Assembly: GCA_017527075.1 (NCBI GenBank)
Contig: JAFXQM010000009.1
Location: 45,419-109,418 of the forward strand
DNA: 64,000 bases
Origin: Selenomonadaceae bacterium
GTDB lineage: Bacteria; Bacillota; Negativicutes; Selenomonadales; Selenomonadaceae
Reading direction: 5' to 3'
Part shown: positions 7,118-56,168 of the stretch, in pieces
Layout of the letters: every line of letters begins with the position of its first letter
How positions within the stretch are numbered: the first letter of the stretch is position 1
Made by a program: the position numbers and the translations under genes
Notes under the pieces: generated by a model
What the model saw: the letters and a program-made list of their open reading frames with translations, nothing else
Told to the model about the DNA's origin: nothing
The model's database searches: none

Positions 7118-7176
7118 GTAGCTGGTAGAAAAATCCTTAAAGCTAAAAGCTGACACCTGACAGCTAAATTTTTTTG
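7118..7176 (+). terminator. long imperfect hairpin built from ~7-nt units, followed by a T-run; probable ecfA terminator
   Basis: TAGCTGGTAGCTGGTAG ... CTGACACCTGACAGCTA pair with periodic mismatches and are followed by AAATTTTTTTGG. Confidence 0.45.
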
Positions 7177-7210
7177 GCACGCAAAAGAAAAGTTGATGAA
7201 CAACGCGAAA

Positions 7211-7249: not shown

Positions 7250-7325
7250 TGGTGGAGACGGAGGGATTCGAACCCTTGACCCCCAGATTGCGAACCTGAT
7301 GCTCTCCCAGCTGAGCTACGTCCCC
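7250..7325 (-). tRNA. tRNA-Ala (anticodon CGC), CCA encoded
   Basis: The reverse complement is GGGGACGTAGCTCAGCTGGGAGAGCATCAGGTTCGCAATCTGGGGGTCAAGGGTTCGAATCCCTCCGTCTCCACCA. It folds as a cloverleaf with anticodon loop TTCGCAA, the G3:U70 Ala identity pair and a GGTTCGAATCC T-arm. Confidence 0.9.
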
Positions 7326-8470: not shown

Positions 8471-8640
8471 AAAAAATTTTTAAGCAAGCCTCGCGGGAAA
8501 ATTTTTCGTTCAAAAGATTTTCGCCGCCGCGTCGGAGCCTCAACGCCGCAAAAAATTTTTAAGCAAGCCTCGCGGAAAAAATTTTCGTTCAAAAGATTTT
8601 CGCCGCCGCGTCGGAGTTTCAACGCCGCAAAAAATTTTTC
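8471..8640. repeat. 79-bp tandem repeat, about 2.15 copies
   Basis: The 8471-8549 and 8550-8628 units are near-identical (AAAAAATTTTTAAGCAAGCCTCGCGG...CAACGCCGC). A partial third unit spans 8629-8640. Confidence 0.85.
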
Positions 8641-9243
8641 TCAAGGCGCGAGCAAAAAATAAATCGCACTCAGCGTGAAGTAAGGACCGTAAGCGAAATA
8701 ACTCTTGCGGTTCTTTTTCTTGAGCAGAATCATGAGCACGGCCGCGAGCGCACCGGCGATTGTCCCGACGAGCACCACGTTAAAAAGTTTTTCGCCGCCG
8801 AGCCAGAGCCCCAACGCCGCGATTAATTTTATGTCGCCGCCGCCGAGTGATCCTTTGGAGGCCACGGCGAACAATAAAAACACTCCGCCGAAGACTGCCG
8901 CCGCCAAAAAATTATCAAACAGCACCGAATTTTGCCACGCGTAAACCGCGCCGAAAATTGCCAGCGGAAAAGTCATCGCGTCGAAGAGCATGTACTGTTC
9001 GAAGTCGGTGAACGTCATGAGCATGAGCAAAAAAATTGCCGGCGTCAAAAATAAATCGTCCGTGAGGCTGAAGAGAATCGTCAGCGCGAAAAACAAAATC
9101 GGCTTGCGAAATTTTGCGCGCGCGGAAATTTCTGCGGGGAAGGTCAGCTCCGAGCTCCGCGAGTAAAGTTTGTCTATCCACAGCGAGCCAGCGACCGTCA
9201 ACGCGGCGGCGAGTGTTGCGCTCAAAAAAATTTTGGCGAGCAT
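8641..9243 (-). CDS. A24-family prepilin peptidase (peptidase domain only)
   Basis: Polytopic membrane protein with FTDFEQYMLFD and GGGDIKLIAALGLWLG, which carry the two catalytic Asp motifs. Confidence 0.75.
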   Translation of the reverse strand: MLAKIFLSATLAAALTVAGSLWIDKLYSRSSELTFPAEISARAKFRKPILFFALTILFSLTDDLFLTPAIFLLMLMTFTDFEQYMLFDAMTFPLAIFGAVYAWQNSVLFDNFLAAAVFGGVFLLFAVASKGSLGGGDIKLIAALGLWLGGEKLFNVVLVGTIAGALAAVLMILLKKKNRKSYFAYGPYFTLSAIYFLLAP

Positions 9244-14730: not shown

Positions 14731-14733
14731 TGC

Positions 14734-14882
14734 GAAAAAATTTTCAGCCGTCGAAAAAATTTTCAGCCGCCGAAAAAATCTGAGCCGCCGAAAAAATTTT
14801 CAGCCGCGGAAAAATTTCTGAGCCGTGGAAAAATTTCTGAGCCGCGGAAAAATTTCTGAGCCGCGGAAAAATTTCTGAGCTG
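14734..14882. repeat. tandem array of eight 18-19-nt units (GAAAAA(A)TTT(T)C(T)(G)AGCCGYG)
   Basis: I counted the units directly: 14734-14752, 14753-14771, 14772-14789, 14790-14808, 14809-14827, 14828-14846, 14847-14865 and 14866-14882. There are no unique spacers. Confidence 0.9.
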
Positions 14883-14893
14883 AAAAAAAATCA

Positions 14894-17084: not shown

Positions 17085-17088
<4 letters not shown>

Positions 17089-18242
17089 ATCAAATCCTCC
17101 TCAATGAATTTCGTTGCCAATGCGCGCGCCGCCTCGTCCTCCGCGATTAAATCTTCGAGCGTCGGATTGCTCAAAACTTTTCGGCGCGTCATGACCTCTT
17201 CAATCACTTCATAAATCTGCAAAAATTTTATCCGCCCGCGCAGGAAGGCATTGACCGCAACTTCATTCGCCGCGTTGAATGCGCAAGGCAAAGTTCCTCC
17301 GACTCTTCCCGCCTCGTATGCAAACTTCAATCCGAGAAAAGTTTCCGCGTCAGGTTTTTCAAATGTCAGCGAGTTCAGCATCCAAAAGTCGAGCGGCTTG
17401 ATTGGCGAGGGCAACCGCCGCGGATAAGTCAGCGCGTATTGAATCGGCAGGCGCATGTCGGGCGCGGCGAGCTGCGCGATAATCGAGCCGTCGCAAAACT
17501 CAACCATCGAATGAACAATGCTTTGCGGGTGGACGACGACTTGAATCTGCGAGTAGTCGACGCCGTAAAGAAATTTCGCTTCGATGACTTCGAGCCCCTT
17601 GTTGACGAGCGTCGCGCTGTCGACGGTGATTTTTTTGCCCATGTTCCACGTCGGGTGCGCGAGCACTTCGTTGACCGTGACGCTTTGCAGGTCTTCGAAA
17701 CTTTTTCCTCTGAACGGACCGCCCGACGCCGTGAGCAAAAGTTTTTTTATCGCGCGCGAGTCTTCGCCCTGCAAGCACTGAAAGAAAGCTCCGTGCTCCG
17801 AATCGACGGGCAAAATTTTCACGCTGCGAGCCTCGACAAGTTTGGTGATGAGTTCGCCCGCCACGACGAGCGTTTCCTTGTTGGCGAGCGCGATATTTTT
17901 TCCGGCGTTGATTGCTTTAATCGTCGGCTCCAAGCCCGCGAAGCCGCTCATGGAAGTCAAAACGATTTCCACGCCGTCGAAGGCCGCCGCGTCGATGAAA
18001 GCCTGCCGTCCGCCCGCGATTTCGACGCCCGAAAAATTTTTCGCGGACAATTTTTTGTAAGCCGCCTCGTCCGCCAAAACCGCCAGCTTCGGACGAAATT
18101 CCTCCACTTGCCGCGCGAAGAGTTCGACGTTGGAATTTGCCGCCAAAACTTCCACGGAAAATTCTTCGGGCAAATTCCTCACGACGTCAAGGGCTTGCGT
18201 GCCGATTGAGCCGGTCGAGCCGAGTATCGCAATTTTTTTCAT
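17085..18242 (-). CDS. dxr: 1-deoxy-D-xylulose-5-phosphate reductoisomerase
   Basis: KIAILGSTGSIGTQALDV, ALANKETLV, LPVDSEHGAFFQCL, HPTWNMGKKITVDSATLVNKGLE. Confidence 0.95.
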
Positions 18243-18286
18243 TCAGTTGTCTCCGTAAAAATAAATTCTGTCTGCACCGTGAAGTT

Positions 18287-18546
18287 GAGGCCGTCAAGGA
18301 TGACGGCCGCGCCGCGTCTGACGCCGTGATGGCGTCATCCGGCGCACACCAAGCACGGGTAACCTCAACCTCCGAATCACGAGCGACCGCCGCCCCCGCG
18401 AGGTGCCCTTTCTCTTTGCTTCTTTCTCTTTGGGCACGCAAAGAGAAAGAAGGTTCAAGAGATAAAAATTTTTCTTCAGCCAAATGAGCACGACGCCCCG
18501 CGGCAATGAGGAGGGGTTCTGCGAGTCCACTCTTGAAAAAGAGGGG
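18287..18546 (-). repeat. structured interspersed element, copy A (reverse orientation relative to copy B)
   Basis: It aligns with the copies at 38480, 47660, 55846 and 59000. It shares the blocks CCCCCGCGAGGTGCCC and GGGTAACCTC..CCGAATC, and the hairpins GGCCGTCA/TGACGGCC and CTTTCTCTTTG/CAAAGAGAAAG. Confidence 0.8.
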
Positions 18547-18555
18547 ACGAATCCC

Positions 18556-19485
18556 TTACGCTATCCCCGAAAGAATCACAAAGTAATAAAAGACGGGCGC
18601 GGTGTAAAGTATGCTGTCGAAGCGGTCGAGCGCACCGCCGTGCCCCGGCAGGAAGAAACCCGAATCTTTTATGCCCGCGAAACGTTTGAGCACGGACTCA
18701 ACCAAATCTCCGAGCGTCGCGACAATCGCCAAGATGAATCCCGCGAATGCCATTTTAATCAGCGGCAAGCCGAAAATAATCGTGCCGACGAAGACCGCCG
18801 TCAAAATCGTGCCGACAATCGAGCCGAGGAAACCTTCCACAGTTTTGCCGGGGCTTATCGACGAGGCGAGCTTGTGAGAGCCAATCGCCGAGCCGACGAA
18901 GTACGCAAAGGTGTCACTCGCCCACGTGCACGCGAACAGCACCCAAACCAGAGCGCAGCCCGCGTCGACGTTCAAGTTCAAACTCAAGTTGAGCGACGGC
19001 AGGAAGTCGAGAATTTTTCCGATGTCAAACTTGTCGAGAAGCGTCGCGTTGTTCGTGGCAATGTCTTGGACAGTCGTGACCGCTTCGCCCGGCTGAGGTT
19101 CGTCCGCCAGGAAGCGCAGGAAAATTAAATGCGCGAACGGCAACCCGATATACATTATCCCCGCCACCGACACGCAAGCATCCGTCGGGCGGGTGCTCCC
19201 GCGCAAAATAACCGTCAGCAAAAAAATCATCATCATGCTGCCGGTCAAGACCGCCAAGAGTTCTTCGACGTTTCCGAGCCACGCGCAACACAAAAACAAA
19301 ATCAGAGCCAACGCTCCGAAAATGTAAGTCGTAATGACTCCCGCGCGCCTGAACGCGGCGGAATATTCGTGCCAGGCCAAAAGCGACAAAAATATCGCGA
19401 AGCCCGCGAACGGCGCGCCGCCGGATTGAATCACGAATGCCGCAATAGCAATTCCGATAATCCCCGTGATAATTCTTAAAAGCAA
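18556..19485 (-). CDS. cdsA: phosphatidate cytidylyltransferase
   Basis: Polytopic protein ending in the signature LKRFAGIKDSGFFLPGHGGALDRFDS. Confidence 0.9.
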   Translation of the reverse strand: MLLRIITGIIGIAIAAFVIQSGGAPFAGFAIFLSLLAWHEYSAAFRRAGVITTYIFGALALILFLCCAWLGNVEELLAVLTGSMMMIFLLTVILRGSTRPTDACVSVAGIMYIGLPFAHLIFLRFLADEPQPGEAVTTVQDIATNNATLLDKFDIGKILDFLPSLNLSLNLNVDAGCALVWVLFACTWASDTFAYFVGSAIGSHKLASSISPGKTVEGFLGSIVGTILTAVFVGTIIFGLPLIKMAFAGFILAIVATLGDLVESVLKRFAGIKDSGFFLPGHGGALDRFDSILYTAPVFYYFVILSGIA

Positions 19486-19497
19486 GGCGTCACTTCC

Positions 19498-20496
19498 TCA
19501 CGCATTTTTTATTTGAACGAAAATTTTCTGTTGAGTTATCAAATCGGCGAGGAGCCACGAAATTAAAACGTCGTGTTCGCCGAGTGATTCCCCGAATTCA
19601 TTTTTTATCGCCGAGAAAATTTCCGGCGGAGACAAATTCAAACTGCTCTCAAAAACTTGCGCCGTCTTCGTGTGAACAAAAAATTCCAACACGGCGCAAC
19701 GATATTGCACGTTCCGCCGAAAGAATTCGATTCGCTCCATCAAATCGTCGAGTAATTTTGTTCCGCGAACAATCGGTTTCATCCAAAAGGTCAGCGTCTC
19801 TTGCTCGGTTCGTTCGCGGCGCAGGACAGAATTTTCCGATTGCCGCCAAACGTAAACGGGATTTGGGACGCGCACAATTCTTTCTGCGAAAAAAATCAGC
19901 GCGCAAGTCCAAACGTCGTCTTCGGCAGGCGCAAATGGCGGGAAAAAAATTTCGTGACCAAGAAGTAAATCTCGTCTGACAAATTTGCTCCACGTCGTGA
20001 GAAAAAATTTTCTCTCCACCAGTTCGTGAACTCTTTCGGCGAGATTTTCCGTCTCCAAAGTCGGTGTGCCGAGAGTTTCGCCCGCGATTTGAATTTCGTC
20101 GAGGTCGGAGCTTGCCTCAAAGTGCCTTTCAAGATAAATGACGTCGGCGGAAAAATTTTTTGCCGCGGCGTGAAGTTCCTCAAGCGCGGTCGGCGTGAGC
20201 AAGTCGTCGGCGTCCACGAAGAAAACGTATTCGCCGCGAGAAAGTTTCAAGCCTTTGTTGCGCGGGAGTGCACAGCCACCCGAATTTTTTTTCGTGGCAA
20301 AAAGTTTCAATCGTCCGCCGAATCTCGGCGCATAACGTTCGACAACCGCGCGGCTTGAATCCGTGGAGCAATCGTCGACGACGATAACTTCAAAGTCTTG
20401 CAAGCTTTGCGCGAGTAAACTTTCCAAACATTCGGCGATAAATTTTTCCGCGTTGAACATGGGAATGATAACAGAAACTGCAGGCGTGTCGGTCAT
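19498..20496 (-). CDS. family-2 glycosyltransferase (GT-A fold), paralog 1
   Basis: VSVIIPMFNAEKFIAECLESLLAQS..FEVIVVDDCSTDSS ... FVDADDLL (DxD). Confidence 0.85.
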   Translation of the reverse strand: MTDTPAVSVIIPMFNAEKFIAECLESLLAQSLQDFEVIVVDDCSTDSSRAVVERYAPRFGGRLKLFATKKNSGGCALPRNKGLKLSRGEYVFFVDADDLLTPTALEELHAAAKNFSADVIYLERHFEASSDLDEIQIAGETLGTPTLETENLAERVHELVERKFFLTTWSKFVRRDLLLGHEIFFPPFAPAEDDVWTCALIFFAERIVRVPNPVYVWRQSENSVLRRERTEQETLTFWMKPIVRGTKLLDDLMERIEFFRRNVQYRCAVLEFFVHTKTAQVFESSLNLSPPEIFSAIKNEFGESLGEHDVLISWLLADLITQQKIFVQIKNA

Positions 20497-21545
20497 GAGA
20501 TTACTCCTTGCTTCAAAAGATTTTCCGGCTCGGTGATTTGCGTTTTGCTTTCCTCGATAGTTTTCCGTTGATTGTTTACGAGAGTAAAGAGAACGGAAAC
20601 CATAACGGCATGTTCGCCAAGTTCGTGCCCGAATTCATTCTTTATCGAATTGTACATTTCGGGCGACGAAACTTCTGAACTGTTTTTATAAATCTGATTG
20701 AAATATCTTTGTGCGGAATGTTCCAAAATGGCGTAACGATATTGAGGATTCAATTTAAAAAAAGGAACTCTGTCCATGGTGCCGGCGAGCCATCTTTGAC
20801 CTTTGATAATGCTGTTGGCGTAGATATTCATCGTTTGCAGAGGAGTTCTCTTTGTTCGGAGCAACGAGTTATCCGATTTGCGATAAAGATAAACTGCAAG
20901 CGGAACGTGGACAATTTTTTTTGCAAAGAAGAGAAGACCGTGTGTCCAAATTTCATCTTCGCAAATTTTGAGGCCTTTTGGGAAAAAAATTTTATGTACG
21001 AGTAAAAAATCACGCCGCAACAATTTTCGCCAAGGAGCCCAATAAAAATTGTCTTTTAACAGCCCCTCCACGCGCCACTTCAAATTCATCTCGAAAATAC
21101 TTTCATCATTTGCCGTGGGTTTTTTCAAATGTCGGAGCGTTCGTTGTTTGCCGTCGTCGCTCATGTTGTAAAAGCCCGTGCAGTTGACAAACTCAACATC
21201 AAAATATTTCGCGGTTTTGTACATTCTTTCCAAGCCGTTCGGCAAAATCAAATCGTCGGCGTCCATGAAAAAAACGTATTCGCCGCGAGAAAGTTTCAAA
21301 CCCTTGTTGCGCGGGACTGAGCCGCTGCCCGAATTTTTTTTCGTGGCAGAAAGTTTCAATCGCCCGCCGAATTTTTTTAGATAACCCGCAACAATTTGAC
21401 GGCTTGAATCCGTGGAACAATCGTCGACGACGATAACTTCAAAGTCTTGCAAGCTTTGCGCGAGTAAACTTTCCAAACACTCGGCAATAAATTTTTCCGC
21501 GTTGAACATCGGGATGATAACGGAAACTTCGGGCGTATCGTTCAT
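20493..21545 (-). CDS. family-2 glycosyltransferase, paralog 2
   Basis: The same N-terminal GT2 motifs are present and FMDADDLI is the DxD. The stop/start overlaps ATGA with the neighbours. Confidence 0.85.
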   Translation of the reverse strand: MNDTPEVSVIIPMFNAEKFIAECLESLLAQSLQDFEVIVVDDCSTDSSRQIVAGYLKKFGGRLKLSATKKNSGSGSVPRNKGLKLSRGEYVFFMDADDLILPNGLERMYKTAKYFDVEFVNCTGFYNMSDDGKQRTLRHLKKPTANDESIFEMNLKWRVEGLLKDNFYWAPWRKLLRRDFLLVHKIFFPKGLKICEDEIWTHGLLFFAKKIVHVPLAVYLYRKSDNSLLRTKRTPLQTMNIYANSIIKGQRWLAGTMDRVPFFKLNPQYRYAILEHSAQRYFNQIYKNSSEVSSPEMYNSIKNEFGHELGEHAVMVSVLFTLVNNQRKTIEESKTQITEPENLLKQGVIS

Positions 21546-22624
21546 GAGTGTGCTCCTTTATTCAAACGACTTTCAAGCTCGGCGATATGAATTTCATCGT
21601 CTTCGATAGATTTTTTGTGCCCGTTTATGAGAGAGCAGAGAACGGGCACCATCGCATTGTATTTGCCGAAATTTTTTCCGAACTCTTGCCGCACCAGCGA
21701 GTAAACGGTTTCGTCGGTCCAATTTCTTTTCCGAACGGTCTGAAGAAGCCGTCTGAACATATCGTCCGTGAAGTCCGCCAAAATTTTGTAACGATACTCC
21801 GGATTTTTTTTAATGAACTCCGATTTGTTCATTATGTCATCAATCCATTTTATCCCGTAAAAAATCGTGTTCATCCTGTAGTTTATGTATTGCACGTTAT
21901 TTCTTTTCGTTCTGGTCAGAGATTCGTCGGACATGCGGTAGTAGTTGAATATCATCTTCGTGTGAACGATTCTTTTGGCGAGGAGCAGAAAGCCGTGTTT
22001 CCAAACGACATCTTCACAGCTGCTGACGTTTTCGGGGAAGAAAATTCCGTTCCCGATTAAAAAATCGCGGCGGAACATCCTGAGCCAGGGCACGCCGTAA
22101 AATCTGTAGTTGAACGGTTTTTCGAGTCGCCAAAGCAAATCATCGTCGACGAAGAAATCTCCCTCTCGTCCTTCAAAAATTTTTTCGTTCCTGCTGGAAG
22201 TCGCTTTTATTTTTTTTGCGTCTTCTTCCATCCTGTGAAACGCTCCGAGGCTGACAACATCGGCGTCATGTTTTTTTGCCAGCTCGTACATTTTTTCGAG
22301 TGCGTCCGCTTTAATCAAATCGTCGCTGTCCAAGAAAAAAACGTATTCGCCGCGCGAAAGGAGCAAACCTCTGTTGCGCGTGCCCGAAGCCTTTGAGTTC
22401 ACCACGTTGTCATAAAGTTTCAAGCGTCCACCAAACTTTTTGAGATAACTTTCGGCAACGCGCCGGCCGTTGTCGGTCGAGCAGTCGTTGACGAGAATCA
22501 CTTCAAAATCTTGCAACGTTTGAGCCAAAACACTTTCAAGAGTCTCGCCGAGATATTTTTCCGCGTTATACATCGGCATGACCACGGAAACCGCGCAGGC
22601 CGCCGACGGTGATTTTATTGTCAT
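21542..22624 (-). CDS. family-2 glycosyltransferase, paralog 3
   Basis: VSVVMPMYNAEKYLGETLESVLAQT...VILVNDCSTDN...FLDSDDLI. Confidence 0.85.
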   Translation of the reverse strand: MTIKSPSAACAVSVVMPMYNAEKYLGETLESVLAQTLQDFEVILVNDCSTDNGRRVAESYLKKFGGRLKLYDNVVNSKASGTRNRGLLLSRGEYVFFLDSDDLIKADALEKMYELAKKHDADVVSLGAFHRMEEDAKKIKATSSRNEKIFEGREGDFFVDDDLLWRLEKPFNYRFYGVPWLRMFRRDFLIGNGIFFPENVSSCEDVVWKHGFLLLAKRIVHTKMIFNYYRMSDESLTRTKRNNVQYINYRMNTIFYGIKWIDDIMNKSEFIKKNPEYRYKILADFTDDMFRRLLQTVRKRNWTDETVYSLVRQEFGKNFGKYNAMVPVLCSLINGHKKSIEDDEIHIAELESRLNKGAHS

Positions 22625-23718
22625 GAGGATTCTCCTTTCATTTGCTCTTCAAGTTCGCTGAGAAGCATTTTGTTTTTCTCTTCTCCTTGCAGTTGCTCTT
22701 CGAGTTCAATGAGACGCATTTTGTTTTTCTCGTCAGCCTTTTGGAAACTGTTCACCAGCGTTAAGAGGACGGAAATCAAGACATCATAATCTCCGAAATT
22801 TTTTCCGAACGTTTTCTTCACCGAGCGATAAATTTCAGTCTGCGGAGCTTTGAGGCTGACCTTGTAAAGCATTTCAAAATATTTTTGCGCGACGTGCGAC
22901 AAAATTTCGTAGCGATATTGGGGCACCGTTTTGAAGAAAAGAATTTTGTCCATCAGGCTGTCAATCCAAGTCAATCCTCGGACAATTACGTTGATGAAGA
23001 CGTTCACATTTTGCAAGGCTGTGATTTTTCTTCTGGACAATGAGTCGACGGATTTGCGATAAAAGTAAACCGCGAGCGGTGTGTGCAAAATTTTTTGTGC
23101 GCAAAAAAGAAGACCGAACGTCCAAATCCTGTCACCATAAATTTCAATTCCTTCGGGGAAAAAGATTCCGTTTCGAATTAAAAAATCACGGCGCGACAAT
23201 CTTCGCCAGGGAGCCCAATAAAAATTATCTTCCAACAATCCTTTAACGCGCCACTCCAAATTTACATCGATAATGTTTTCGAGTGTCGCCGTGGGTTTTT
23301 TCAAACGCCGAAGCTTTCTTTCTTTGCCGTCGTCACTCAAGTCATAATGACCCGTGCAGTTTACAACGTCGACATCAAAACTTTTTGCGAGCCCGTAAAG
23401 TCTCTTCAAGCCGTTCGGCAAAATCAAATCGTCGGCGTCCATGAAGAAGACGTATTCCCCGCGGGAAATTTCCAAGCCTTTGTTGCGCGTGGCAGACACG
23501 CCGAGATTTTTTTGATTATCATAAATCGTCAAACGTCCGCCGAATTTTTCAAGATAACCCTCGGCAATTTGTCGGCTGCCGTCGGTCGAAGCGTCATTGA
23601 CGAGAATCACTTCAAAGTCTTGAAAAGTTTGAACCAGAACGCTGTCGAGGCATTCGGCGATATATTTTTCCGCGTTGTACATCGGAATGATAACGGAAAT
23701 AGTGGGAGCACTCGTCAT
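22621..23718 (-). CDS. family-2 glycosyltransferase, paralog 4 (repeated coiled C-terminal tail)
   Basis: ISVIIPMYNAEKYIAECLDSVLVQT...FMDADDLI. The C-terminus carries the duplication KNKMRLIELEEQLQGEEKNKMLLSELEEQMKG. Confidence 0.85.
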   Translation of the reverse strand: MTSAPTISVIIPMYNAEKYIAECLDSVLVQTFQDFEVILVNDASTDGSRQIAEGYLEKFGGRLTIYDNQKNLGVSATRNKGLEISRGEYVFFMDADDLILPNGLKRLYGLAKSFDVDVVNCTGHYDLSDDGKERKLRRLKKPTATLENIIDVNLEWRVKGLLEDNFYWAPWRRLSRRDFLIRNGIFFPEGIEIYGDRIWTFGLLFCAQKILHTPLAVYFYRKSVDSLSRRKITALQNVNVFINVIVRGLTWIDSLMDKILFFKTVPQYRYEILSHVAQKYFEMLYKVSLKAPQTEIYRSVKKTFGKNFGDYDVLISVLLTLVNSFQKADEKNKMRLIELEEQLQGEEKNKMLLSELEEQMKGESS

Positions 23719-23730
23719 GAAAATCCCTCC

Positions 23731-24792
23731 TTATGTTGTCTTCAATTGAGCTTCAAGCTCGGTGATTCTATTCTGAGCCTGCGCGGCGAATTGATTAAAT
23801 CTTTGTTGGTTGACGGCGGAAATTCTCTGTTGCGTGTTCAAAGCCGTGCAAAGCAAGGAAATCATCTCGTTCGGGTCGCCAACTTCATCATCGAGCCCTT
23901 GCTTGATTATCTCGTAAACTTCAAACGGCTGAAGTTGAATACTTTTCTCCAAAACGGAGGCGAAATTCACTTGAATAAAATAATCCGCAAGCTCGTAAAA
24001 ATATACGGGATTTTGCCGGAAGAATTCTATCTCATCCATGATTTTCTTGAGAGAGTGCACGCCTTGAACAATTAAATCGATATAAGAAACTATCTTTCGA
24101 GCGGCTCCCATATCTTTTTTGGTAAATGAATCCTCGTGTTGACGATAAACATAAACCGCATTCGGGACGCGCAGAAATTTCTTCGCGCAAAGAATATCGT
24201 ATCTTCGTGTCCTTTCATCGGCGGGAAGTCCAATTGTTCTCAACCAAAAAATCTCGCGCGACAAGATGCAGCCAAGGTGCTCCCATAAACCTCCCGTGCA
24301 ATATTCCTTGAACGCGTTCAGCCAAATTTTCAGTTTCAAAGGTCGGCTCGTCGACGAAACTGCCTCGTTGATAACTTGTCAGCTGAATTTCTTTGAGGTC
24401 ATGATTCGCGCCGAAATATTTTTCGCAGTGGACAACGTCGGCGGCAAAATTTTTCGCAAGCGTGTAAAGCTCTTCAAGTGCGGTCGCCTTCACGAGCAAG
24501 TCGTGGCGTCCATGGAAAAAATATATTCGCCGCGTGAAAGTGCAAAGCCTTTGTTGTGAGGAAGTGCGCTGCTGCCCGAATTCTTTTTCATGCGCGAAAG
24601 TTTCAGCCGCCCGCCGAATTTCGGAATGTAACTTTCGACAATCGCATAACTTGAATCCGTCGAGCAATCATCAACGACGATGACCTCCAGGTTTTGGAGC
24701 GTCTGAGCCAAAAGGCTGTTGAGGCATTCGGCGATATATTTTTCCGCGTTGAACATGGGAATGATAATGGAAACGGCGGGAGAAATTATCAT
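23731..24792 (-). pseudogene. family-2 glycosyltransferase paralog 5, disrupted by at least two frameshifts
   Basis: The N-terminal 100 aa (24490..24792) end prematurely at ...EYIFSMDATTCS-stop, where the paralogs read MDADDL. The sequence continues in a second frame (24215..24667: LVKATALEELYTLAKNFAADVVHCEKYF) and then a third (23731..24339: ...LRVPNAVYVYRQ...). Confidence 0.8.
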
Positions 24793-24804
24793 GAAAGCTC
24801 CTCC

Positions 24805-25866
24805 TTAATTTTTATCGAAACCGACAAGTTGCTCTTGGGTTGAAACCAAATGTTTTTCCGGCTTGTGCTTGGCGAGTTTTCTTTGATATTCATTTATCAG
24901 AGTGAAGAGAACGGGAACGGCAACCGAAGCATTACAGCCGTCGGAGTTCTCCTTAAACTCCTCCCTCAGCGAATCATACATATCCCTCGGCGAAATGTGT
25001 GAATCAATATGAGTAACTATCTTGAAAAATCTTTTCGCAATGTGTTTCAATATCGGGTAACGATATTTTGGATTTTTTTCGAAGAAGGGAGCTCTGTCCA
25101 TGATTTTGTCAATCCACTCCATGGCGTGAACGAGCGCGCCCGCCCTGAAGTTTATCCGTTCCAATCGACTCATGGTTACGCTTTCAGAAACCAGAGAGCT
25201 GCGGTGAAAATAAACCGCGCGCGGCACGTGAATAATTTTTTTTGCAAAGAACAACAGGGCATGAGTCCACATCACGTCCTCGACGCGTTTGAGCTTTACG
25301 GGGAAGAAAATTTTGTTTTCAAGCAAAAACTCACGCCGCGACATTTTTCGCCAAGGAGCCCAACCGAATCTGTCGTGCAACAAAAAATTTTTTATCCGCC
25401 ACTCCATATTTGACTCAAGCAAGTATTTGCCTTTTATTTTGCCCACGGAGAATTTGCGAGTAACTTCCTTGCCGTCTTCGCTCATGGAATATGCTTCCGT
25501 GAAATTGACAACGTCGACGTTAAAGTGCTTCGCCTTACCGTACAATTCTTCCAAAGCACTTGCCAAAATCAAATCGTCGTCGTCCATGAAGAAAACATAT
25601 TCGCCCTGCGCCCGAAGCAAACCGTTGTTGCGCGTGCTGCTGATTCCCAAGTTGCTTTCGTTATCGTAAATCTTCAGCCGTCCGCCGAACTTTTCAAGAT
25701 AACTTTCGGCGATTTGTCGGCTGCCGTCGGTCGCGCAGTCATTGACGATAATCACTTCAAAATCTTGAAACGTCTGAGCCAAAACGCTGTCGAGGCATTC
25801 GGCGATATACTTTTCCGCGTTGAACATGGGAATGATGACGGAAACGGCGGGAGCATTTGCCATCAA
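24805..25866 (-). CDS. family-2 glycosyltransferase, paralog 6
   Basis: VSVIIPMFNAEKYIAECLDSVLAQT...VIIVNDCATDGS...FMDDDDLI. Confidence 0.85.
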   Translation of the reverse strand: MMANAPAVSVIIPMFNAEKYIAECLDSVLAQTFQDFEVIIVNDCATDGSRQIAESYLEKFGGRLKIYDNESNLGISSTRNNGLLRAQGEYVFFMDDDDLILASALEELYGKAKHFNVDVVNFTEAYSMSEDGKEVTRKFSVGKIKGKYLLESNMEWRIKNFLLHDRFGWAPWRKMSRREFLLENKIFFPVKLKRVEDVMWTHALLFFAKKIIHVPRAVYFHRSSLVSESVTMSRLERINFRAGALVHAMEWIDKIMDRAPFFEKNPKYRYPILKHIAKRFFKIVTHIDSHISPRDMYDSLREEFKENSDGCNASVAVPVLFTLINEYQRKLAKHKPEKHLVSTQEQLVGFDKN

Positions 25867-27181: not shown

Positions 27182-27246
27182 TTAAAAAAGCCTCCTTTGT
27201 AAGGAATAAGGGTTTCAATTCCTCATTCCTAATTCCTCATTCCTAA

Positions 27247-27970: not shown

Positions 27971-28046
27971 TGTTAGTTAGGAATTAGGAGTTAGGAGTTA
28001 GGAGTTGAAATTCTAACAGCTAACAACTAACAGCTTTCAGCTAATC
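27971..28046. repeat. heptamer-periodic imperfect inverted repeat (TTAGGAG units facing CTAACAG/CTAACAA units)
   Basis: GTTAGTTAGGAATTAGGAGTTAGGAGTTAGGAGTTGAAATTCTAACAGCTAACAACTAACAGC. It belongs to the same motif family as 7118, 27201, 30583, 40581 and 51143. Confidence 0.75.
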
Positions 28047-28152
28047 TGCCGCCAATTTTACTTGCTGATTCTTTTCCTGTCAATAATTCCTTGCCCCGCG
28101 TCTTGAAAAGCTGAAAAATTTATGATACACTTCGACGCGTGAAAGAAGGTGA

Positions 28153-29025
28153 TTGGCTTTGAAAAAAATCGGATTCATCGGGACGGGCATCATGGGCGCG
28201 GCAATGGCAGGTCACCTAATCGACGCGGGCTTTGAGTTGAGCGTTTACAATCGCACGAAGTCCAAGGCACAAGGTCTGCTTGAGCGCGGCGCACGTTGGT
28301 GCGAAACCGTCGGCGAGTGTGCGGCGGGGCAGGACGTCGTGATTACAATCGTCGGTTACCCCAAGGACGTCGAAGAAATTTACTTGGGCGCGGGCGGCAT
28401 CGTCGAGTCGGCAAAGGCGGGTGCTTACCTCGTCGACATGACGACTTCGTCACCGATTCTCGCCGAGAAAATTTTTGCGGCGGCCAAGAAAAAAAATCTC
28501 CACGCCGTTGACGCTCCCGTCACGGGCGGAGATGTCGGCGCGCGCAATGCCACGCTGACGATTTTGGTCGGCGGCGAAGAGGAAGCCTTCAACGCCCTGC
28601 AACCTGTCTTTGCGGCCATGGGCAAGAACGTCGTTTACGAAGGCGCGGCGGGCGCAGGTCAAAAGACGAAGGCCTGCAACCAAATCGCCATTGCCGGAAC
28701 GCTGGCGGGTGTGTGCGAGGCGTTCGCTTATGCCAAGGCGTCGGGGCTCGACGTGGAAAAAGTTTATTCGGCGATTGCAACGGGCGCGGCGGGTTCGTTC
28801 CAGATGACAGGCGTCGCGCGCAAAGGTCTGGACGGCGACTTCAACCCCGGCTTCATGCTCAAGCATTTCGGAAAAGATTTGGCGATTGGCACGGAGACTG
28901 CCACGGCTTACGGCGCGTCGCTCCCGATTTTGGCGATGGTGTTGCACGAGGTTCGCAAGCTTGAACAAGCGGGCGAAGGCGACCTGGGCACGCAAGCTCT
29001 TTTAAAATATTATGGCGTTAAGTGA
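28153..29025 (+). CDS. NAD(P)-dependent 3-hydroxyisobutyrate / 2-hydroxy-3-oxopropionate reductase-family dehydrogenase
   Basis: KIGFIGTGIMGAAMAGHL Rossmann motif, DAPVTGGDVGA, and KACNQIAIAG. The start may be the TTG at 28159. Confidence 0.8.
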   Translation: MALKKIGFIGTGIMGAAMAGHLIDAGFELSVYNRTKSKAQGLLERGARWCETVGECAAGQDVVITIVGYPKDVEEIYLGAGGIVESAKAGAYLVDMTTSSPILAEKIFAAAKKKNLHAVDAPVTGGDVGARNATLTILVGGEEEAFNALQPVFAAMGKNVVYEGAAGAGQKTKACNQIAIAGTLAGVCEAFAYAKASGLDVEKVYSAIATGAAGSFQMTGVARKGLDGDFNPGFMLKHFGKDLAIGTETATAYGASLPILAMVLHEVRKLEQAGEGDLGTQALLKYYGVK

Positions 29026-29043
29026 TTCAAGGAGGGAAAAATT

Positions 29044-29481
29044 TTGATAGACGAATGGAAAAAATTTATTCTCCGCGGAAACGTTTTGGATTTGGCCGTC
29101 GGTGTTGTCATCGGTGCGGCGTTCGGCAAAATCGTTTCCTCGTTCACGGCTGACATCCTCATGCCGCCGCTCGGACTTTTGCTCGGCAAAGTGGACTTTT
29201 CAAATTTCTACATCAATCTTTCGAGCGTCGAATACGAATCGTTCGCCGCAGCCAAGGAGGCGGGCGCGCCCATCATCGCTTACGGCGCGTTCCTCAACAC
29301 GTGCCTCGACTTCCTGATTGTTGCAACCGCGATTTTCATTTTGATTAAGCAGGTCAATCGATTCATGCCGGCACCTCCTCCTCCGCCGCCCGACCCGCGC
29401 AAGTGCCCCTTCTGCCGTGAAGTCGTTGCCGACGACGCGACCAAGTGCCCGCATTGCGCTTCCGACATCAAAGGCAAATGA
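29044..29481 (+). CDS. mscL: large-conductance mechanosensitive channel MscL with a C-terminal Pro-rich linker and CxxC...CxxC tail
   Basis: WKKFILRGNVLDLAVGVVIGAAFGKIVSSFTADILMPPLG is canonical MscL. The tail is PAPPPPPPDPRKCPFCREVVADDATKCPHCAS. Confidence 0.85.
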   Translation: MIDEWKKFILRGNVLDLAVGVVIGAAFGKIVSSFTADILMPPLGLLLGKVDFSNFYINLSSVEYESFAAAKEAGAPIIAYGAFLNTCLDFLIVATAIFILIKQVNRFMPAPPPPPPDPRKCPFCREVVADDATKCPHCASDIKGK

Positions 29482-29511
29482 GCTGTCAGCTGTTAGAATA
29501 AAAAAATTTTT

Positions 29512-29545
29512 CCCCGCCGCTCTCCGTGAGTGACGGGTAAATTTT
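29512..29545. terminator. terminator module after mscL (A-run, hairpin, T-run), copy 1
   Basis: AAAAAAATTTTT-CCCCGCCGCTCTCCGTGAGTGACGGG-TAAATTTTTTT. A second copy lies at 29756-29790. Confidence 0.55.
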
Positions 29546-29755
29546 TTTGTCCGCGCAGATTATTTTTTCTTGAACTTCGTGCCTTTGAGCGTGTCGGAAC
29601 CAAATCCGCCAAGAAGTTTTTCGTTGCCCTTGCCGCCGAGAATGGAATCGTTACCGCTTGTCGTTGAGAACGTCTCACCCGAAATGCTCGGCGTCGAAGT
29701 TTCATTGAAGCCCACGATTGAATCGCTTGTCAAAGGCTTGGCACAAAAAATTTTT

Positions 29756-29790
29756 CCCCGCCGCTCGTGATGAGTGACGGGGATTTTTTA
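29756..29790. terminator. terminator module downstream of codY, copy 2 (possibly bidirectional)
   Basis: AAAAAATTTTT-CCCCGCCGCTCGTGATGAGTGACGGGG-ATTTTTTAT. Confidence 0.55.
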
Positions 29791-29806
29791 TTTCTTGCCG
29801 CGGAAT

Positions 29807-30565
29807 TTATCTGCGGAGCTTTTGAACTTCCTCCATGAGGTATTCGTTTTTGATTTTTATGTAAGTGCCCTTCATGCCCAGAGACTTGGACTCGATGACG
29901 CCCGCCGATTCAAATTTGCGCAAGGCGTTGACGATGACGGAGCGAGTGATGCCGACGCGGTCAGCGATTTTGCTCGCGACGAGAAGACCTTCGTTGCCGT
30001 TGAGTTCGCTCAAGATGTTCACGGCAGCCTCCGCCTCCGAGTAGCTCAGCGTCGCCAGCGCAATTTGAACGGTTGCCTTCTTGCGCGCCTCAATCTCAAC
30101 CTTCTCGGTGTGGTCGCGCAAAATTTCCATGCCGACAACCGTCGCGCCGTACTCGGCCAGGAGCAAATCGTCGTCCGTAAATTTTTCGTCGTTGCGGGCG
30201 ACAATCAGCGTGGCGATTCTGCGCCCCACGCCGTAAATCGGAACGATTGTGAGGTTCTTGCCGGTCACGGGCGAGCCACCGTCTTTGTCAGCGTAACTTT
30301 TCGGATTGACTTGCGTCTCGTCGAAGCGATTGAGCCATTTGACATAAGGCGCGGGGAAATTGCCGTTGTCGATGATTTCTTCGAGCGCGAAATTTTCGTC
30401 GTCATCGTCAATCAAGGCGTGACCGTAGAACTCGCCCTTCTTGCCGGCGATGTAGACGTTTGCCTTGAGGACGTTGCTCAGGACTCGCGAAATCCCGTCG
30501 TACTCCACATTTTCGGAACGCTGGAGCAGCTTGTTAATTTTCCTCGTTTTCTCCAAAAGCGTCAT
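29807..30565 (-). CDS. codY: GTP/BCAA-sensing global regulator CodY
   Basis: MTLLEKTRKINKLLQ..., followed by a GAF-like domain and the wHTH ASKIADRVGITRSVIVNALRKFESAGVIESKSLGMKGTYIKI. Confidence 0.92.
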   Translation of the reverse strand: MTLLEKTRKINKLLQRSENVEYDGISRVLSNVLKANVYIAGKKGEFYGHALIDDDDENFALEEIIDNGNFPAPYVKWLNRFDETQVNPKSYADKDGGSPVTGKNLTIVPIYGVGRRIATLIVARNDEKFTDDDLLLAEYGATVVGMEILRDHTEKVEIEARKKATVQIALATLSYSEAEAAVNILSELNGNEGLLVASKIADRVGITRSVIVNALRKFESAGVIESKSLGMKGTYIKIKNEYLMEEVQKLRR

Positions 30566-30582
30566 ATCAAAAACTCTCCTTT

Positions 30583-30662
30583 GTTAGGAGTTAGGTGTTA
30601 GGAGGCAGGTGTTAGGTGTTTTGTCCCTAAATCCCAAATCCCAAATCCTAAATCCTGAATTT
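30583..30662. repeat. heptamer-periodic imperfect inverted repeat between apbE and codY
   Basis: GTTAGGAGTTAGGTGTTAGGAGGCAGGTGTTAGGTG ... CCCTAAATCCCAAATCCCAAATCCTAAATCCTGAA. Confidence 0.7.
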
Positions 30663-30745
30663 GGCGTTGCTCAATATCCTACGTTTATACTAGCACGAAA
30701 TTCGATAATGTCAAATTAGTTTTCAGAATTTTTTATGCAAGCCTT

Positions 30746-31663
30746 TCACGGCGCAGAAAAAATTTTCGCCGCGATTTTATTTTCCGTCAAAAATTTTTCC
30801 GTCCGCTCCTTGCCTAGGACGAAAGCGGTCGTGCTCAAGATGTCGGCGAGCGTCGCGCAATTTTTTTCTCTGCCGCCCACGATGACACTCACGGAAAAAT
30901 TTTCGGCTTCGGCGGGCGCGCAAGTCTTCGGGTCGATGATGTGATGGTAGCGGCGGCCGTCGGCGATGAAAAATTTTTCGTAATCGCCCGAAGTGCTCAG
31001 CGCACAATCCTCAAGCTCGACGACGCCGGAAATTTCTTCGGCGCGCGGATTTTTTATTCCGATTTTCTTTTTGCCCACGGCGAAGATTGTGCTCGTGCCG
31101 AAGTCAATCAAGCCGCTCGTCACTCCATGCGCAACGAAAATTTTCCGCGCCACGTCCACGCCGTAACCTTTGCCCACGCCGCCCAAATTTATTTTCACGC
31201 CGCGCCTGTCCAAGTAAGCTTCGCCGCCGCGCAGGTGCAGATGTTCGTGCCCGACGAAATTTTTCACGGCGATGAGTTCGTCGGCGGTCGGGACGCGCGG
31301 ATTTTCCGTGCCGATTCCCCACAGCTCGACGGCGGCTCCAATCGTCACGTCGAAAGCTCCGTCCGTCAGCGCGGAAAATTTCTGCGCGGCCGTCAAAATT
31401 TCGTAAACGTCGGAAGAAATTTTCACGAAGGCTCCGTTGCCCGCCGCGTCCTCGATTTTTTTCACGTCGGCGGAAATTTTTTTCTCCAGCTCGAAGAGTG
31501 CAAGGAAACTTTCGTCGAGGGCAGCGCGCGAATTTTTTCCTTCCGCCTTGAGCGTGACGACCGTGCCCATCAAAATTTCCGTGCGCTCAAAATTTTTCGG
31601 CGAGTCGCAGTCCGCGCTTAAGACCGTCACAAAAAAAATTATCACTGCGAAAAATTTTTTCAT
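30746..31663 (-). CDS. apbE: FAD:protein FMN transferase (ApbE family) lipoprotein
   Basis: Signal/lipobox FFVTVLSADC. MGTVVTL, DGAFDVTIG, INLGGVGKGYGVD and ALSTSGDYEKFF..GRRYHHIIDPKT are ApbE motifs. Confidence 0.85.
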   Translation of the reverse strand: MKKFFAVIIFFVTVLSADCDSPKNFERTEILMGTVVTLKAEGKNSRAALDESFLALFELEKKISADVKKIEDAAGNGAFVKISSDVYEILTAAQKFSALTDGAFDVTIGAAVELWGIGTENPRVPTADELIAVKNFVGHEHLHLRGGEAYLDRRGVKINLGGVGKGYGVDVARKIFVAHGVTSGLIDFGTSTIFAVGKKKIGIKNPRAEEISGVVELEDCALSTSGDYEKFFIADGRRYHHIIDPKTCAPAEAENFSVSVIVGGREKNCATLADILSTTAFVLGKERTEKFLTENKIAAKIFSAP

Positions 31664-31717
31664 GCCGAGTGATTCGCCTCCGAAGATTTTTTGCCCTGCG
31701 CTCCGATAAAATTTTTC

Positions 31718-31915
31718 TCGCCCCCGAAAAATTTTCCGTGAGCCGCGAGGATTTTTTTGTCGCCGAAAATATTTCCGTGAGCCGTGATTTCTCTCTCGCC
31801 GCCGAAAATTTTTCCGTGAGCCATGATTTTTTCCTCGCCGCCGAAAATATTTCCGTGAGCCGTGATTTCTTCCTCGCCGCCGAAAATATTTCCGTGAGCC
31901 GCGATTTTTTATTCG
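31718..31915. repeat. tandem array of five ~39-nt units upstream of the iron-uptake operon promoter
   Basis: The units are at 31718-31760, 31761-31798, 31799-31837, 31838-31876 and 31877-31915, with consensus CCGCCGAAAATATTTCCGTGAGCCGTGATTTCTTCCTCG. Confidence 0.9.
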
Positions 31916-31935
31916 ATAAAAATTTTCAAGCGATA

Positions 31936-31964
31936 TTGCCTTGCAAAATTTTCTGTGCTAAAAT
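31936..31964 (+). promoter_or_regulatory. sigma-70-like promoter for exbB
   Basis: TTGCCT (31936-31941), a 17-nt spacer, then TAAAAT (31959-31964), about 45 nt before the exbB start. Confidence 0.45.
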
Positions 31965-32009
31965 GCCGCAAGTTGAAACCAGTTATCATTGAACAGGAGA
32001 GATTTTATT

Positions 32010-38479: not shown

Positions 38480-38750
38480 GGGCGTCCTTTCGTTGGTTAA
38501 GCAAAAGGACACAAAGTCAACTGAGGTTTTCACGGCGCGTCGTGTTCGTTGGGCTGATAAAAATTTTTTGTCTGTTGAACCTTACTTTTCTTTTGCGTGC
38601 CCAAAAGAAAAGTAAGCAAAAGAAAAGGGCACCTCGCGGGGGCGTCGGTCGTTCGTGATTTGGAGTCGCGCGCAACCCGTGTGTGATGTGCGCTGGACGC
38701 CGCTGTCCTGCGGCGTGTGCAGCGCGGCCGTCCATCCGGGACGGCCTCTG
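38480..38750 (+). repeat. structured interspersed element, copy B (reference orientation), inserted between the two permease genes
   Basis: Hairpins GTCCTTT/AAAGGAC (38484-38510), ACTTTTCTTTTG/CAAAAGAAAAGT, GCGCTG..ACGCCGC/GCGGCGT..CAGCGC and GGCCGTCC/GGACGGCC (38726-38746). Conserved block GGGCACCTCGCGGGGGCG. Confidence 0.8.
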
Positions 38751-38785
38751 ATTCGTCGGCGTGATTCTTTCTTGGGAGTGAACTC

Positions 38786-40585: not shown

Positions 40586-40615
40586 GAGTTAGGAGTTAGG
40601 AGTTAGGAGTTAGGA
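40581..40615 (+). repeat. five tandem GTTAGGA heptamers forming the intercistronic spacer
   Basis: GTTAGGAGTTAGGAGTTAGGAGTTAGGAGTTAGGA-ATG. The first TAG is the ATPase stop codon, and the array ends at the next start codon. Confidence 0.9.
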
Positions 40616-41068
40616 ATGAGGAATTTTTTTATTGCAATTCTTGTGGCGGGGATTTTAATCAGCGGGTGCGGCGGCGAAGAAAAATCTCCCGCTCCGAAGC
40701 CCGCGCAAAACAAAATCGACTTGTCCAACGCCAAGGACGGCACGTACACGATTGAAAGCTCGCGCGACGAAAAACTCGGCAACAGCACCTTGACGCTGAC
40801 GATTAAGGACAAAAAAATTGTCGCCGCCTCTTTCACGGGTTACGATTTGTTCGGCAACGTCAAGGACGAAAATTACGGCGCGCTGACCGGCAAAGATTCC
40901 GCCGATTACAAAAAGGCGCAGGTCGCCGTCGACGCGATTAAAGTTTATCCCGCGCAGCTCGTCGAGACTCAAGACCTCGGCAAGGTCGACGCGATTTCGG
41001 GCGCGAGTATTTCTTACGGGCAATTCGTCGAGACAACCCGCCGCGCAGTCGAAGAAGCCTCCAAGTGA
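40616..41068 (+). CDS. FMN-binding domain lipoprotein
   Basis: Lipobox ILISGCGG and the FMN_bind motif DAISGASISYGQF. Confidence 0.75.
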   Translation: MRNFFIAILVAGILISGCGGEEKSPAPKPAQNKIDLSNAKDGTYTIESSRDEKLGNSTLTLTIKDKKIVAASFTGYDLFGNVKDENYGALTGKDSADYKKAQVAVDAIKVYPAQLVETQDLGKVDAISGASISYGQFVETTRRAVEEASK

Positions 41069-47928: not shown

Positions 47929-47949
47929 AAATTCCGCGGCTCGTCACTT

Positions 47950-55830: not shown

Positions 55831-55845
55831 ATTTTTCAATTCTTT

Positions 55846-56090: not shown

Positions 56091-56168
56091 ACGAATCGCG
56101 CATTGATATTTGTCGGGCTTGAAGTTATAATTTGCCCGTCAAATTTTTTTTGCAAAGGAGAGGGCAAA

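Follow-up and report, generated by a model that had tools for sequence, protein, structure and literature searches.

A modular, insertion-polymorphic repeat of rumen Selenomonadaceae with a predicted pseudoknot and a mirror-image purine tract

The copies in the window and their anatomy

The DNA analysed here—hereafter the window, meaning the whole 64-kilobase (kb) stretch—comes from an uncultured, Quinella-like rumen Selenomonadaceae bacterium, whose Dxr, encoded next to copy A, is 100% identical to a protein listed by NCBI under a Selenomonadaceae metagenome-assembled genome and 83% identical to that of Quinella sp. 2Q5; the parent contigs derive from metagenome assemblies at ENA. Its intergenic DNA holds five copies of a repeat element, named A–E in a first-pass annotation, that align with each other over ~190–270 nucleotides (nt). 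That annotation had their positions and strands right: a covariance model of the family, built from 18 members, recovers all five with scores of 154–210 bits (expectation value, E, 1e-45 to 1e-62). To its count of five copies in 64 kb we add a sixth fragment. We refer to the orientation used in the annotation as the element strand and to its complement as the opposite strand. A full unit consists, in order, of an optional 5′ hairpin (HP1), an A/T block, a core of ~50 nt, an optional central domain of ~60 nt, two GC-rich hairpins (HP3 and HP4) and a short tail, which can hold a ribosome-binding site. The copies and their surroundings are as follows.

18285–18551, minus strand: copy A, long form with a type-1 HP1; 209.7 bits for 18281–18469; neighbours cdsA (18556–19485) and dxr (17085–18242), both co-oriented with the element
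38484–38754, plus strand: copy B, long form; type-2 HP1 38484–38510, core 38582–38632, HP4 38726–38746; between two FtsX permease genes, co-oriented
47660–47934, plus strand: copy C; HP1 47664–47689, core 47762–47811, HP4 47905–47926; between a condensation-domain gene and a convergent EIIA-man gene
55840–56096, minus strand: copy D; HP1 56069–56092, core 55963–56012, HP4 55848–55868; antisense to both plus-strand neighbours, with a stop codon at 55830 on one side and a strong promoter-like site at 56103–56131 on the other
59000–59219, plus strand: copy E, without a 5′ hairpin; core 59047–59096, HP4 59192–59211; between the genes for the beta and gamma subunits of an oxoacid:ferredoxin oxidoreductase, co-oriented
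7171–7210, minus strand: the sixth fragment, a remnant of the A/T block and tract 1 with an 83% match to copy C, directly 3′ of the terminator of a tRNA (7253–7325)

The genes next to the copies (cdsA/dxr, FtsX/FtsX, oxidoreductase beta/gamma) are functionally unrelated. The promoter-like site adjoining the 5′ end of copy D lies on the plus strand and is of the sigma-70 type (TTGATA-17-TATAAT, 11 of 12 consensus positions). Within copy A, the modules map as follows.

18525–18548, minus strand: HP1, GTCC-C-CTCTT / AAGAG-T-GGAC, with the C.T mismatch seen in type-1 copies
18419–18452, minus strand: S1, a 14-base-pair (bp) hairpin CTTCTTTCTCTTTG / CAAAGAGAAAGAAG with the 6-nt loop CGTGCC; its arms are core tracts 1 and 2
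18403–18418, minus strand: tract 3 and S2b, CAAAGAGAAAG, the mirror of tract 2, then GGGCA pairing with the S1 loop (predicted pseudoknot)
18346–18406, minus strand: central domain, holding CCTCGCGGGGGCG, GATTCGGA and ACCCGTG; CGC.GGG with CCCGTG gives helix P_a, and GCACC / GGTGT a possible helix P0 in competition with S2
18309–18345, minus strand: HP3, a hypervariable two-tier hairpin, GCGCCG..TGACGCC / GGCGTCA..CGGCGC
18289–18308, minus strand: HP4, GGCCGTCA-TCCT-TGACGGCC, then TCAA; opposite-strand loop AAGGAU

The same plan, with variants, holds in related loci (L numbers). Type-1 HP1 reads GTCC-C-CTCTT/AAGAG-T-GGAC on the element strand, every type-1 copy having this or a close variant, with a pyrimidine mismatch at a constant position (C.T, but T.T in L048). 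In copies A and D it is CCCCTCTT/AAGAGTGG; the annotation had given this hairpin from the plus strand, while the stem variants it quoted are correct. Type 2 (GTCCTTT...AAAGGAC) is found in B and L054, and a third 5′ module, made of TTAGGRG runs, in L046, L052 and L085. Runs of TTAGGAG/TTAGGGG-like heptamers also stand just past gene ends in the window (27217–27246 and 40596–40625); together with CTRTTGAAAAARTCT..GGTCATTCG they constitute the alternative 5′ module at L046 ~850–900, L052 ~1100–1130 and L085 1700–1735. A variable stretch separates HP1 from the A/T block, GGCTGAAAAAATTTTTTG...TTGAAYC. In copies A–D, four of the five, this block includes the palindromic decamer AAAAATTTTT, which occurs 54 times in the window, in genes and spacers, against 1.84 expected from shuffles (for example at 904, 2033, 18464, 38559, 47739 and 56026). 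The core opens with S1, an 11–14-bp hairpin of a pyrimidine tract and its complement, followed by tract 3 and S2b. The 3′ part runs from the central domain through the two-tier, hypervariable HP3 to HP4 (GGCCGYC-RTCCNN-GRCGGCC), TCAA and the tail. From A/T block to HP4, 17 of 19 long-form copies measure 188–192 nt despite their variable sequence; a short form without the ~60-nt CCTCGC...ACCCG domain is present in Quinella sp. 2Q5 (L060, two copies) and in L057.

That the stems differ between copies yet stay complementary, as first proposed, is borne out. In a 22-copy alignment, 90.1% of cells in helices are paired as against 75.9% after column shuffling (0/500) and 45–51% with slid partners, 28 of 48 pairs have changed on both sides, and the covariation score is 0.366 versus 0.141—figures that lean high, since related sequences were aligned by fitting them to this structure. 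The hairpins are secure because of the slid controls and the diversity of pair types. S1 is 97.9% paired with 9 of its 14 pairs changed on both sides, as are all 13 pairs of HP3 (helices 5 and 6) and 5 of 8 in HP4. The compensatory change is thus real, but part of it reflects exchange of whole modules between copies and not stepwise compensation.

The shared blocks that had been taken as unpaired turned out to be partly paired. GGGCA is complementary to the loop of the central hairpin S1, and CGC.GGG pairs with CCCGYG (P_a) in 19 of 19 copies, through G.U in 12 and G-C in 7; RNAalifold recovered P_a, and nothing else, in the central domain. The P0 alternative (GAGC/GCTC in D, GGAG/CTCC in L055) is only 70% paired overall. 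A long-range pairing of GAGGTTGAGG with CCTCAACTTC was dropped for lack of covariation in other subtypes. An inverted-repeat scan of copies A and B gave internal hairpins only and no terminal inverted repeats, which, together with hairpins kept by compensatory change, agrees with the first impression that the family fits poorly to a recently amplified miniature inverted-repeat transposable element (MITE).

The triple-tract core

The most unusual feature of the element, a mirror-repeat second purine tract with loop pairing downstream, is one that the first-pass annotation had missed. In order, the core comprises a pyrimidine tract, a loop of 6–8 nt, a complementary purine tract, a second purine tract and a loop-pairing segment. 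This last segment lies directly past tract 3 and is complementary to the S1 loop, and loop and tail change in step: GTGCC/GGCAC, GCGTC/GACGC, TGTCC/GGACA, GGTCC/GGACC, CGCAC/GTGCG, TCGCC/GGCGA, GTGGCC/GGCCAC, AGACCC/GGGTCT, CTCCGCCC/GGGCGGAG and others. Over 37 distinct combinations the Watson–Crick run between loop and tail averages 4.43 nt, compared with 2.84±0.14 for tail shuffles (0/5000); this helix was not included in the covariance model. The covariation argues for a predicted H-type pseudoknot.

The three tracts also change together. In every asymmetric core tabulated, tract 3 is the mirror image of tract 2 and never its direct copy, as the four tract classes illustrate (tracts 1, 2 and 3, respectively).

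T5CT3, A3GA5, A5GA3
T4CT3, A3GA4, A4GA3
T3CT4, A4GA3, A3GA4
T3CT5, A5GA3, A3GA5

Symmetric forms (T4CT4, T3CTCT3 and T3CT3) are common, and in them too all three tracts vary jointly. Because some of our earlier search patterns had the mirror form built in, we scanned the viral collection with patterns of equal specificity: the mirror pattern found eight loci and the direct-repeat pattern none, while a second, symmetric pattern returned mirror or symmetric cores only. Duplication of a tract yields a direct copy and inversion its reverse complement; neither yields a mirror image. A mirror-image tract 3 thus cannot come from such DNA rearrangement, and its constancy speaks for selection on a triple helix.

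Mirror symmetry of a homopurine tract is indeed the sequence rule for triple helices (classification in PMC7583470), and the tracts permit 9–11 potential base triples. On the element strand the third strand would be purine and antiparallel to the purine strand of the duplex, with A.A-U and G.G-C triples; on the opposite strand it would be pyrimidine and parallel to the purine strand, with U.A-U and C+.G-C triples. We infer that the core may be a pseudoknot in which tract 3 runs alongside the hairpin to give a triple helix of 9–11 steps. Triple helices are known from the MALAT1 and PAN ENE elements and from the H-type pseudoknots of telomerase RNA and the SAM-II and preQ1-II riboswitches; MALAT1 has nine U.A-U triples plus one C.G-C, and the bacterial RNA cases, known only in riboswitches, have about two canonical triples each (PMC7583470). 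Like these major-groove triplexes, the opposite-strand core would bring together two U-rich strands and one A-rich strand with the third parallel to the purine strand and, like MALAT1, it would intersperse one or two C.G-C steps among the U.A-U steps, here set within a pseudoknot. It differs in its order—Hoogsteen strand, short linker, Watson–Crick pyrimidine strand, loop, purine strand—and, unlike MALAT1 and the others, it is bacterial and multicopy and is known here from its sequence.

The same homopurine mirror repeat, tracts 2 and 3, is also the sequence requirement for H-DNA. The element could accordingly be imagined to act as double-stranded DNA, its mirror repeat forming H-DNA and its inverted repeats cruciforms, both offering nucleoid, replication or recombination proteins a place to bind or pause, a role that has been suggested for bacterial interspersed mosaic elements (BIMEs). 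Its occurrence in both orientations and the over-represented palindrome in copies A–D would fit such a role. Yet H-DNA alone leaves tract 1, the covarying loop-tail pairing and the compensatory change in five hairpins unexplained, and we regard this explanation as improbable.

Insertion polymorphism, mosaicism and orientation

The junction between cdsA and dxr, where copy A resides, is filled in some lineages and empty in others. Long-form elements occupy it in the window and in L055/56, a strain 96% identical, and Quinella sp. 2Q5 (L060) has a short-form element there; in six lineages with Dxr 80–88% identical (L057, L058/59, L085, L086, L087 and L088) the site is empty and the genes abut or overlap, with overlapping stop-start codons (TGATG/TAATG) read in L057 and L058. 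Filled and empty sites have at most one base in common that could count as a target-site duplication. Upstream of cdsA, at 19498–25866, the window carries six tandem paralogous genes of ~1.05–1.1 kb each, annotated as glycosyltransferase family 2 in related contigs and numbering one to six per strain.

The copies are, in addition, mosaics. At the cdsA/dxr junction, the L055 element has a D/B-type interior where the window has type A; the 61-nt 3′ ends of B and D are 100% identical; one HP3 is common to A, L051, L053 and L054; deletion copies occur at L045, L048 and L085; and at L049 ~230–335 a D-like copy bears a structured insertion of ~97 nt in tract 2, that is, an element nested in an element. 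Being insertion-polymorphic and mosaic, the element behaves as mobile DNA. In some strains, a GIY-YIG/NUMOD3 (homing-endonuclease-like) gene lies between mscL and a gene for an NAD-binding dehydrogenase (L085 4299–5027, L087 4273–5001, L088 972–1733); it is not at that position in L055, L057 or L058.

One could suppose that a transposon elsewhere in the genome gave rise to the family as an ordinary MITE or as a derivative of the IS200/IS605 type. There are subterminal hairpins at both ends, the 3′ one followed by TCAA in most copies, the type-1 hairpins have their mismatch in common, no clear target duplication is seen, and inverted pairs occur in Proteobacteria. Against this, terminal inverted repeats are missing, the end hairpins are dissimilar to each other and vary among copies, and a partner gene was found at no locus examined, although only a few flanking proteins were scanned; any likeness to IS608 ends is tentative. 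A fixed 5′ target of the IS200/IS605 kind is not seen. This origin appears very improbable.

Orientation was counted by hand in a set of 18 copies, an automatic count based on open reading frames being too noisy. The upstream gene is co-oriented with the element in 14, the element starting 2–20 nt past its stop codon, while the other four (D, L005, L011b and L046) face the other way; the downstream gene is co-oriented in nine and convergent in nine. Apparent operons surround copies A, B and E as well as the Burkholderia copy in aceF-lpdA. Promoter and terminator scans found none inside the elements, with only scattered matches in the proteobacterial loci; no intrinsic terminator (GC hairpin plus U run) was found at the element ends in A, B or D, and a T run past HP4 is seen in L011a and L080 only. 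At the cdsA/dxr junction, the overlapping stop and start gave way on insertion to a new GGAG, 8 nt ahead of the ATG, and the two L060 copies are similar through the tail to GGAGA before the ATG. The first-pass suggestion of a structured noncoding RNA is not demonstrated by these data: promoters and terminators are missing inside the elements, both orientations relative to neighbouring genes occur, and the copies are insertion-polymorphic and mosaic. Several further candidates were set aside—an integron attC site on account of the housekeeping neighbours and both orientations, a riboswitch or leader because no downstream gene is common to the copies, and a small-protein gene on context or sequence.

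Which strand would act is signalled in both directions. Co-orientation with upstream genes and the ribosome-binding site in the tail speak for the element strand, and so do a more stable fold in 13 of 19 copies and an excess of G.T over A.C in helices (54 versus 16; 14 versus 5 in helices not derived on that strand), although this lean is confounded, P0, P_a and P_c having come from the fold of that very strand. The opposite strand is the strand of the Rfam family described below, gives the canonical pyrimidine-motif triplex and has GGA in its hairpin loops. The loop-tail helix carries no strand signal.

These data bear on a cis-acting role, in which the element strand would be a portable intercistronic or 3′-untranslated piece of operon mRNAs, blocking exonucleases or directing processing, its tail providing a ribosome-binding site for the next gene. 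The predominant co-orientation and short distance from the preceding stop codon, the location inside cdsA-dxr, FtsX-FtsX, oxidoreductase beta-gamma and aceF-lpdA, the missing terminator, the GGAGA and GGAG sites before start codons, and the more stable, G.U-richer fold of the element strand are all as this role would have them. However, four copies are reversed and nine are followed by a convergent gene, the orientation bias could be mere tolerance since the other orientation may be polar in an operon, and an element-strand triplex would be of the purine motif, which is poorly supported for RNA. On balance, we consider such a module distinctly unlikely.

The window has further repeats of its own. 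Intergenic tandem arrays on AAAATTTT-type motifs lie at 14732–14891 (19-nt unit, 8.6 copies), 31717–31907 (39-nt unit, 4.9 copies) and 8471–8660 (79-nt unit, 2.4 copies). Beside the 39-nt array, at ~28000–32000, the cumulative GC skew reaches its minimum, and long open reading frames change from mostly the minus strand (13–27 kb) to mostly the plus strand (28–41 kb); this may be a replication origin region.

Relatives, Rfam families and the nature of the element

A scan for the pattern CCTCGC...GAYTYGRA in a genome collection with one genome per species, the window's own species not among them, gave 41 loci, three of which are true relatives (L005, L011 and L025, in two rumen Selenomonadaceae metagenome-assembled genomes; L011 carries a second copy). 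About 20 of the 41 matches belong to a conserved Xanthobacter/Aquabacter gene and two to CRISPR repeats. A scan of JGI metagenomes added ten loci, L045–L054. When copy B was compared by BLAST with plasmid and chromid records, only its core matched, at unannotated intergenic places in Ralstonia, Pseudoalteromonas and Paraburkholderia. The core is found in 134 Ralstonia records of the plasmid collection, at ≥ ~40 places per record in Paraburkholderia, at 17 viral or prophage contig loci, in Variovorax, and in intergenic DNA of Burkholderia, Pasteurella, Aeromonas, Pseudoalteromonas and Ilyobacter (Fusobacteriota). Cores facing each other ~390–540 nt apart occur in Ralstonia wenshanensis, Pasteurella multocida and Paraburkholderia (L062, L063, L065), and in the Ralstonia pairs the flanks are inverted too. 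No core was found in complete E. coli genomes and no match in the phage collection. It matches no Rfam family in scans of core-bearing loci, and the literature on Quinella repeats, on the tract sequences, on bacterial triple helices and on Ralstonia/Burkholderia MITEs yielded no earlier description, although this coverage is incomplete and no proof of novelty; the conserved core may itself be new.

At the gathering threshold, an Rfam scan of the window found one tRNA and nothing else, and lax scans of copy B and of 47.5–59.4 kb found nothing relevant; the annotator's failure to match the element to an RNA family holds for the window copies. It does not hold for relatives. In L005 and L011, HP4 and HP3 match the core of TwoAYGGAY (RF01731) on the opposite strand with 35.6–36.6 bits, below the curated cut-off of 43 bits; the alignment covers model positions 49–108 of 168 and not the outer P1 stem, which is very small in some members of the family (Weinberg et al. 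2010, PMC2864571). Directly 3′ of the core, Pseudoalteromonas has a full RF01731 match on the opposite strand (51.3 bits), and matches beside the core score 41.5 bits in Aeromonas and 43.7 bits in viral contig L076. In the published TwoAYGGAY alignment, the Psychromonas flanks hold the U-rich/U-rich/A-rich tracts (PMC2864571 supplement). Contig L076, with its unit of core and TwoAYGGAY, also contains two type II hammerhead ribozymes (1351–1423 and 2238–2309, 66–70 bits).

The element resembles TwoAYGGAY in its pair of adjacent GC-rich hairpins, the loops of that motif reading AYGGAY on one strand; TwoAYGGAY occurs in many copies in gut and rumen Clostridia-type bacteria and in gamma-Proteobacteria. 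They differ in that the Rfam model, on the opposite strand, has two hairpins and an outer stem and is without core, central domain and 5′ modules. The window copies stay below a reportable score (no RF01731 match in B, C, D or E even at E<=10). Their opposite-strand loops are AAGGAU (A), CCGGAUGG (B, D) and AUGGAC (C, E) in HP4, and GUGAU (A), AGGACA (B, D), UGA (C) and CGGAC (E) in HP3; at most one of the two loops fits AYGGAY, and this in C and E only, whereas both fit in L005 and L011.

A second Rfam family adjoins the core. In Burkholderia cepacia a full match to Bp1_Cand684_SIPHT (RF02421, a predicted Burkholderia small RNA, sRNA) of 118.8 bits immediately adjoins the core on its 5′ side, on the opposite strand, and the family stands directly beside the triple-tract core at L066 2398–2509 and L063 1116–1219 (both minus strand, in Burkholderia and Paraburkholderia). 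It has CTCGCGGGGGCG and TTGAACC in common with the window elements but a different module order, and the window has no significant match (copy B, 12 bits). The Bp1_684 'sRNA' may be part of the same repeat element.

These adjacencies raise the question of whether the element is a functional RNA of the TwoAYGGAY class, transcribed from the opposite strand, with GGA loops for a protein such as CsrA, a U.A-U triplex capping or stabilising the RNA 3′ end, and copies representing many genes or sites. TwoAYGGAY was rated 'probably RNA, not cis-regulatory' by its authors (PMC2864571), and CsrA binding has been proposed for it (PMC4333381). The 36-bit matches of L005 and L011, the matches at or above cut-off beside the core in Pseudoalteromonas and L076, and the tracts in Psychromonas all argue for kinship, as do GGA in the opposite-strand HP4 loops of five of five window copies (AAGGAU, CCGGAU or AUGGAC), the canonical parallel pyrimidine-motif arrangement that the tracts would give on that strand (classification in PMC7583470) and the strong conservation of copy C. 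The case is weakened by the absence of RF01731 matches in the window copies scanned, by HP3 loops without GGA in A and C, by promoter scans that found no promoter-like site for the opposite strand, by the antisense position of that strand relative to the upstream gene (14 of 18 copies), by the excess of G.T over A.C on the element strand, and by sites filled in some lineages and empty in others. We judge such an RNA unlikely. A dedicated RNA function of either kind, opposite-strand sRNA or cis-acting mRNA module, is taken together a serious contender that falls somewhat short of an even chance, and it and a mobile-repeat nature are not exclusive.

Repetitive extragenic palindromic (REP) sequences and BIMEs, REPINs and BOX elements are short, multicopy, intergenic and often intra-operonic mosaics of hairpin modules that occur in both orientations, undergo compensatory change and do not code. 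All these traits of the REP/BIME/REPIN elements of Proteobacteria and BOX of pneumococci recur here. Inverted doublets like those of REPINs are seen in Ralstonia, Pasteurella and Paraburkholderia, in proteobacterial relatives only. Unlike REP and REPIN, the element is longer and more complex (140–270 nt, five helices plus pseudoknot) and unrelated in sequence, with no GTAG-type motif of REP visible in the family alignments. The reading we favour, with about even confidence, is a REPIN/BIME-like, non-autonomous, structure-dependent mobile repeat that carries a TwoAYGGAY hairpin pair and a triplex-type pseudoknot. Such a modular repeat would spread or be exchanged as DNA and persist only while one strand can fold, the fold being what a trans-acting enzyme or host factor would recognise. 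Its orientation bias would reflect tolerance inside operons, mainly for the orientation that does not disturb them.

Several observations weigh against this reading, or against the triple helix within it. No transposase was seen in the loci examined, where only a few flanking proteins were scanned, and neither a terminal inverted repeat nor a clear target duplication was found. The ends of the element are variable and its interior blocks best conserved, which is unusual for a transposon, while the tightly kept length and conserved hairpin loops are typical of a functional RNA. Where an orthologous contig (L047) holds part of copy C, 193 of 193 positions are identical, as compared with 86% for a 21-nt flank and 91% for the neighbouring gene (84% at third codon positions); the result is as compatible with purifying selection on a function as with recent exchange. 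As to the triple helix, the evidence is one of sequence, the independent events behind the mirror rule are few—the four tract classes—and a covarying extension of S1 by 3–4 bp leaves a gap of only 1–2 nt to tract 3, a tight fit for an in-register triplex.

For the family, the finding gives TwoAYGGAY, an orphan since 2010, a place in a larger, modular and insertion-polymorphic element, and with it a context for functional tests. For annotation, it means that elements of this kind split operons and can equip essential genes, dxr among them, with a ribosome-binding site. From Firmicutes, Proteobacteria and Fusobacteria to viral contigs, the triple-tract core covaries in all three tracts and obeys the mirror rule strictly. 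We tentatively, and with considerable doubt, take it to be an uncatalogued cross-phylum motif—a pseudoknot with an intramolecular triplex of 9–11 steps, contained in mobile repeats that carry the orphan TwoAYGGAY, and read by a conserved enzyme or host factor or protecting an RNA end. If true, a triplex of this length would be by far the longest natural one known in bacteria; placed in a mobile bacterial repeat, it would represent a new structural class and offer a handle for the protein that recognises it.

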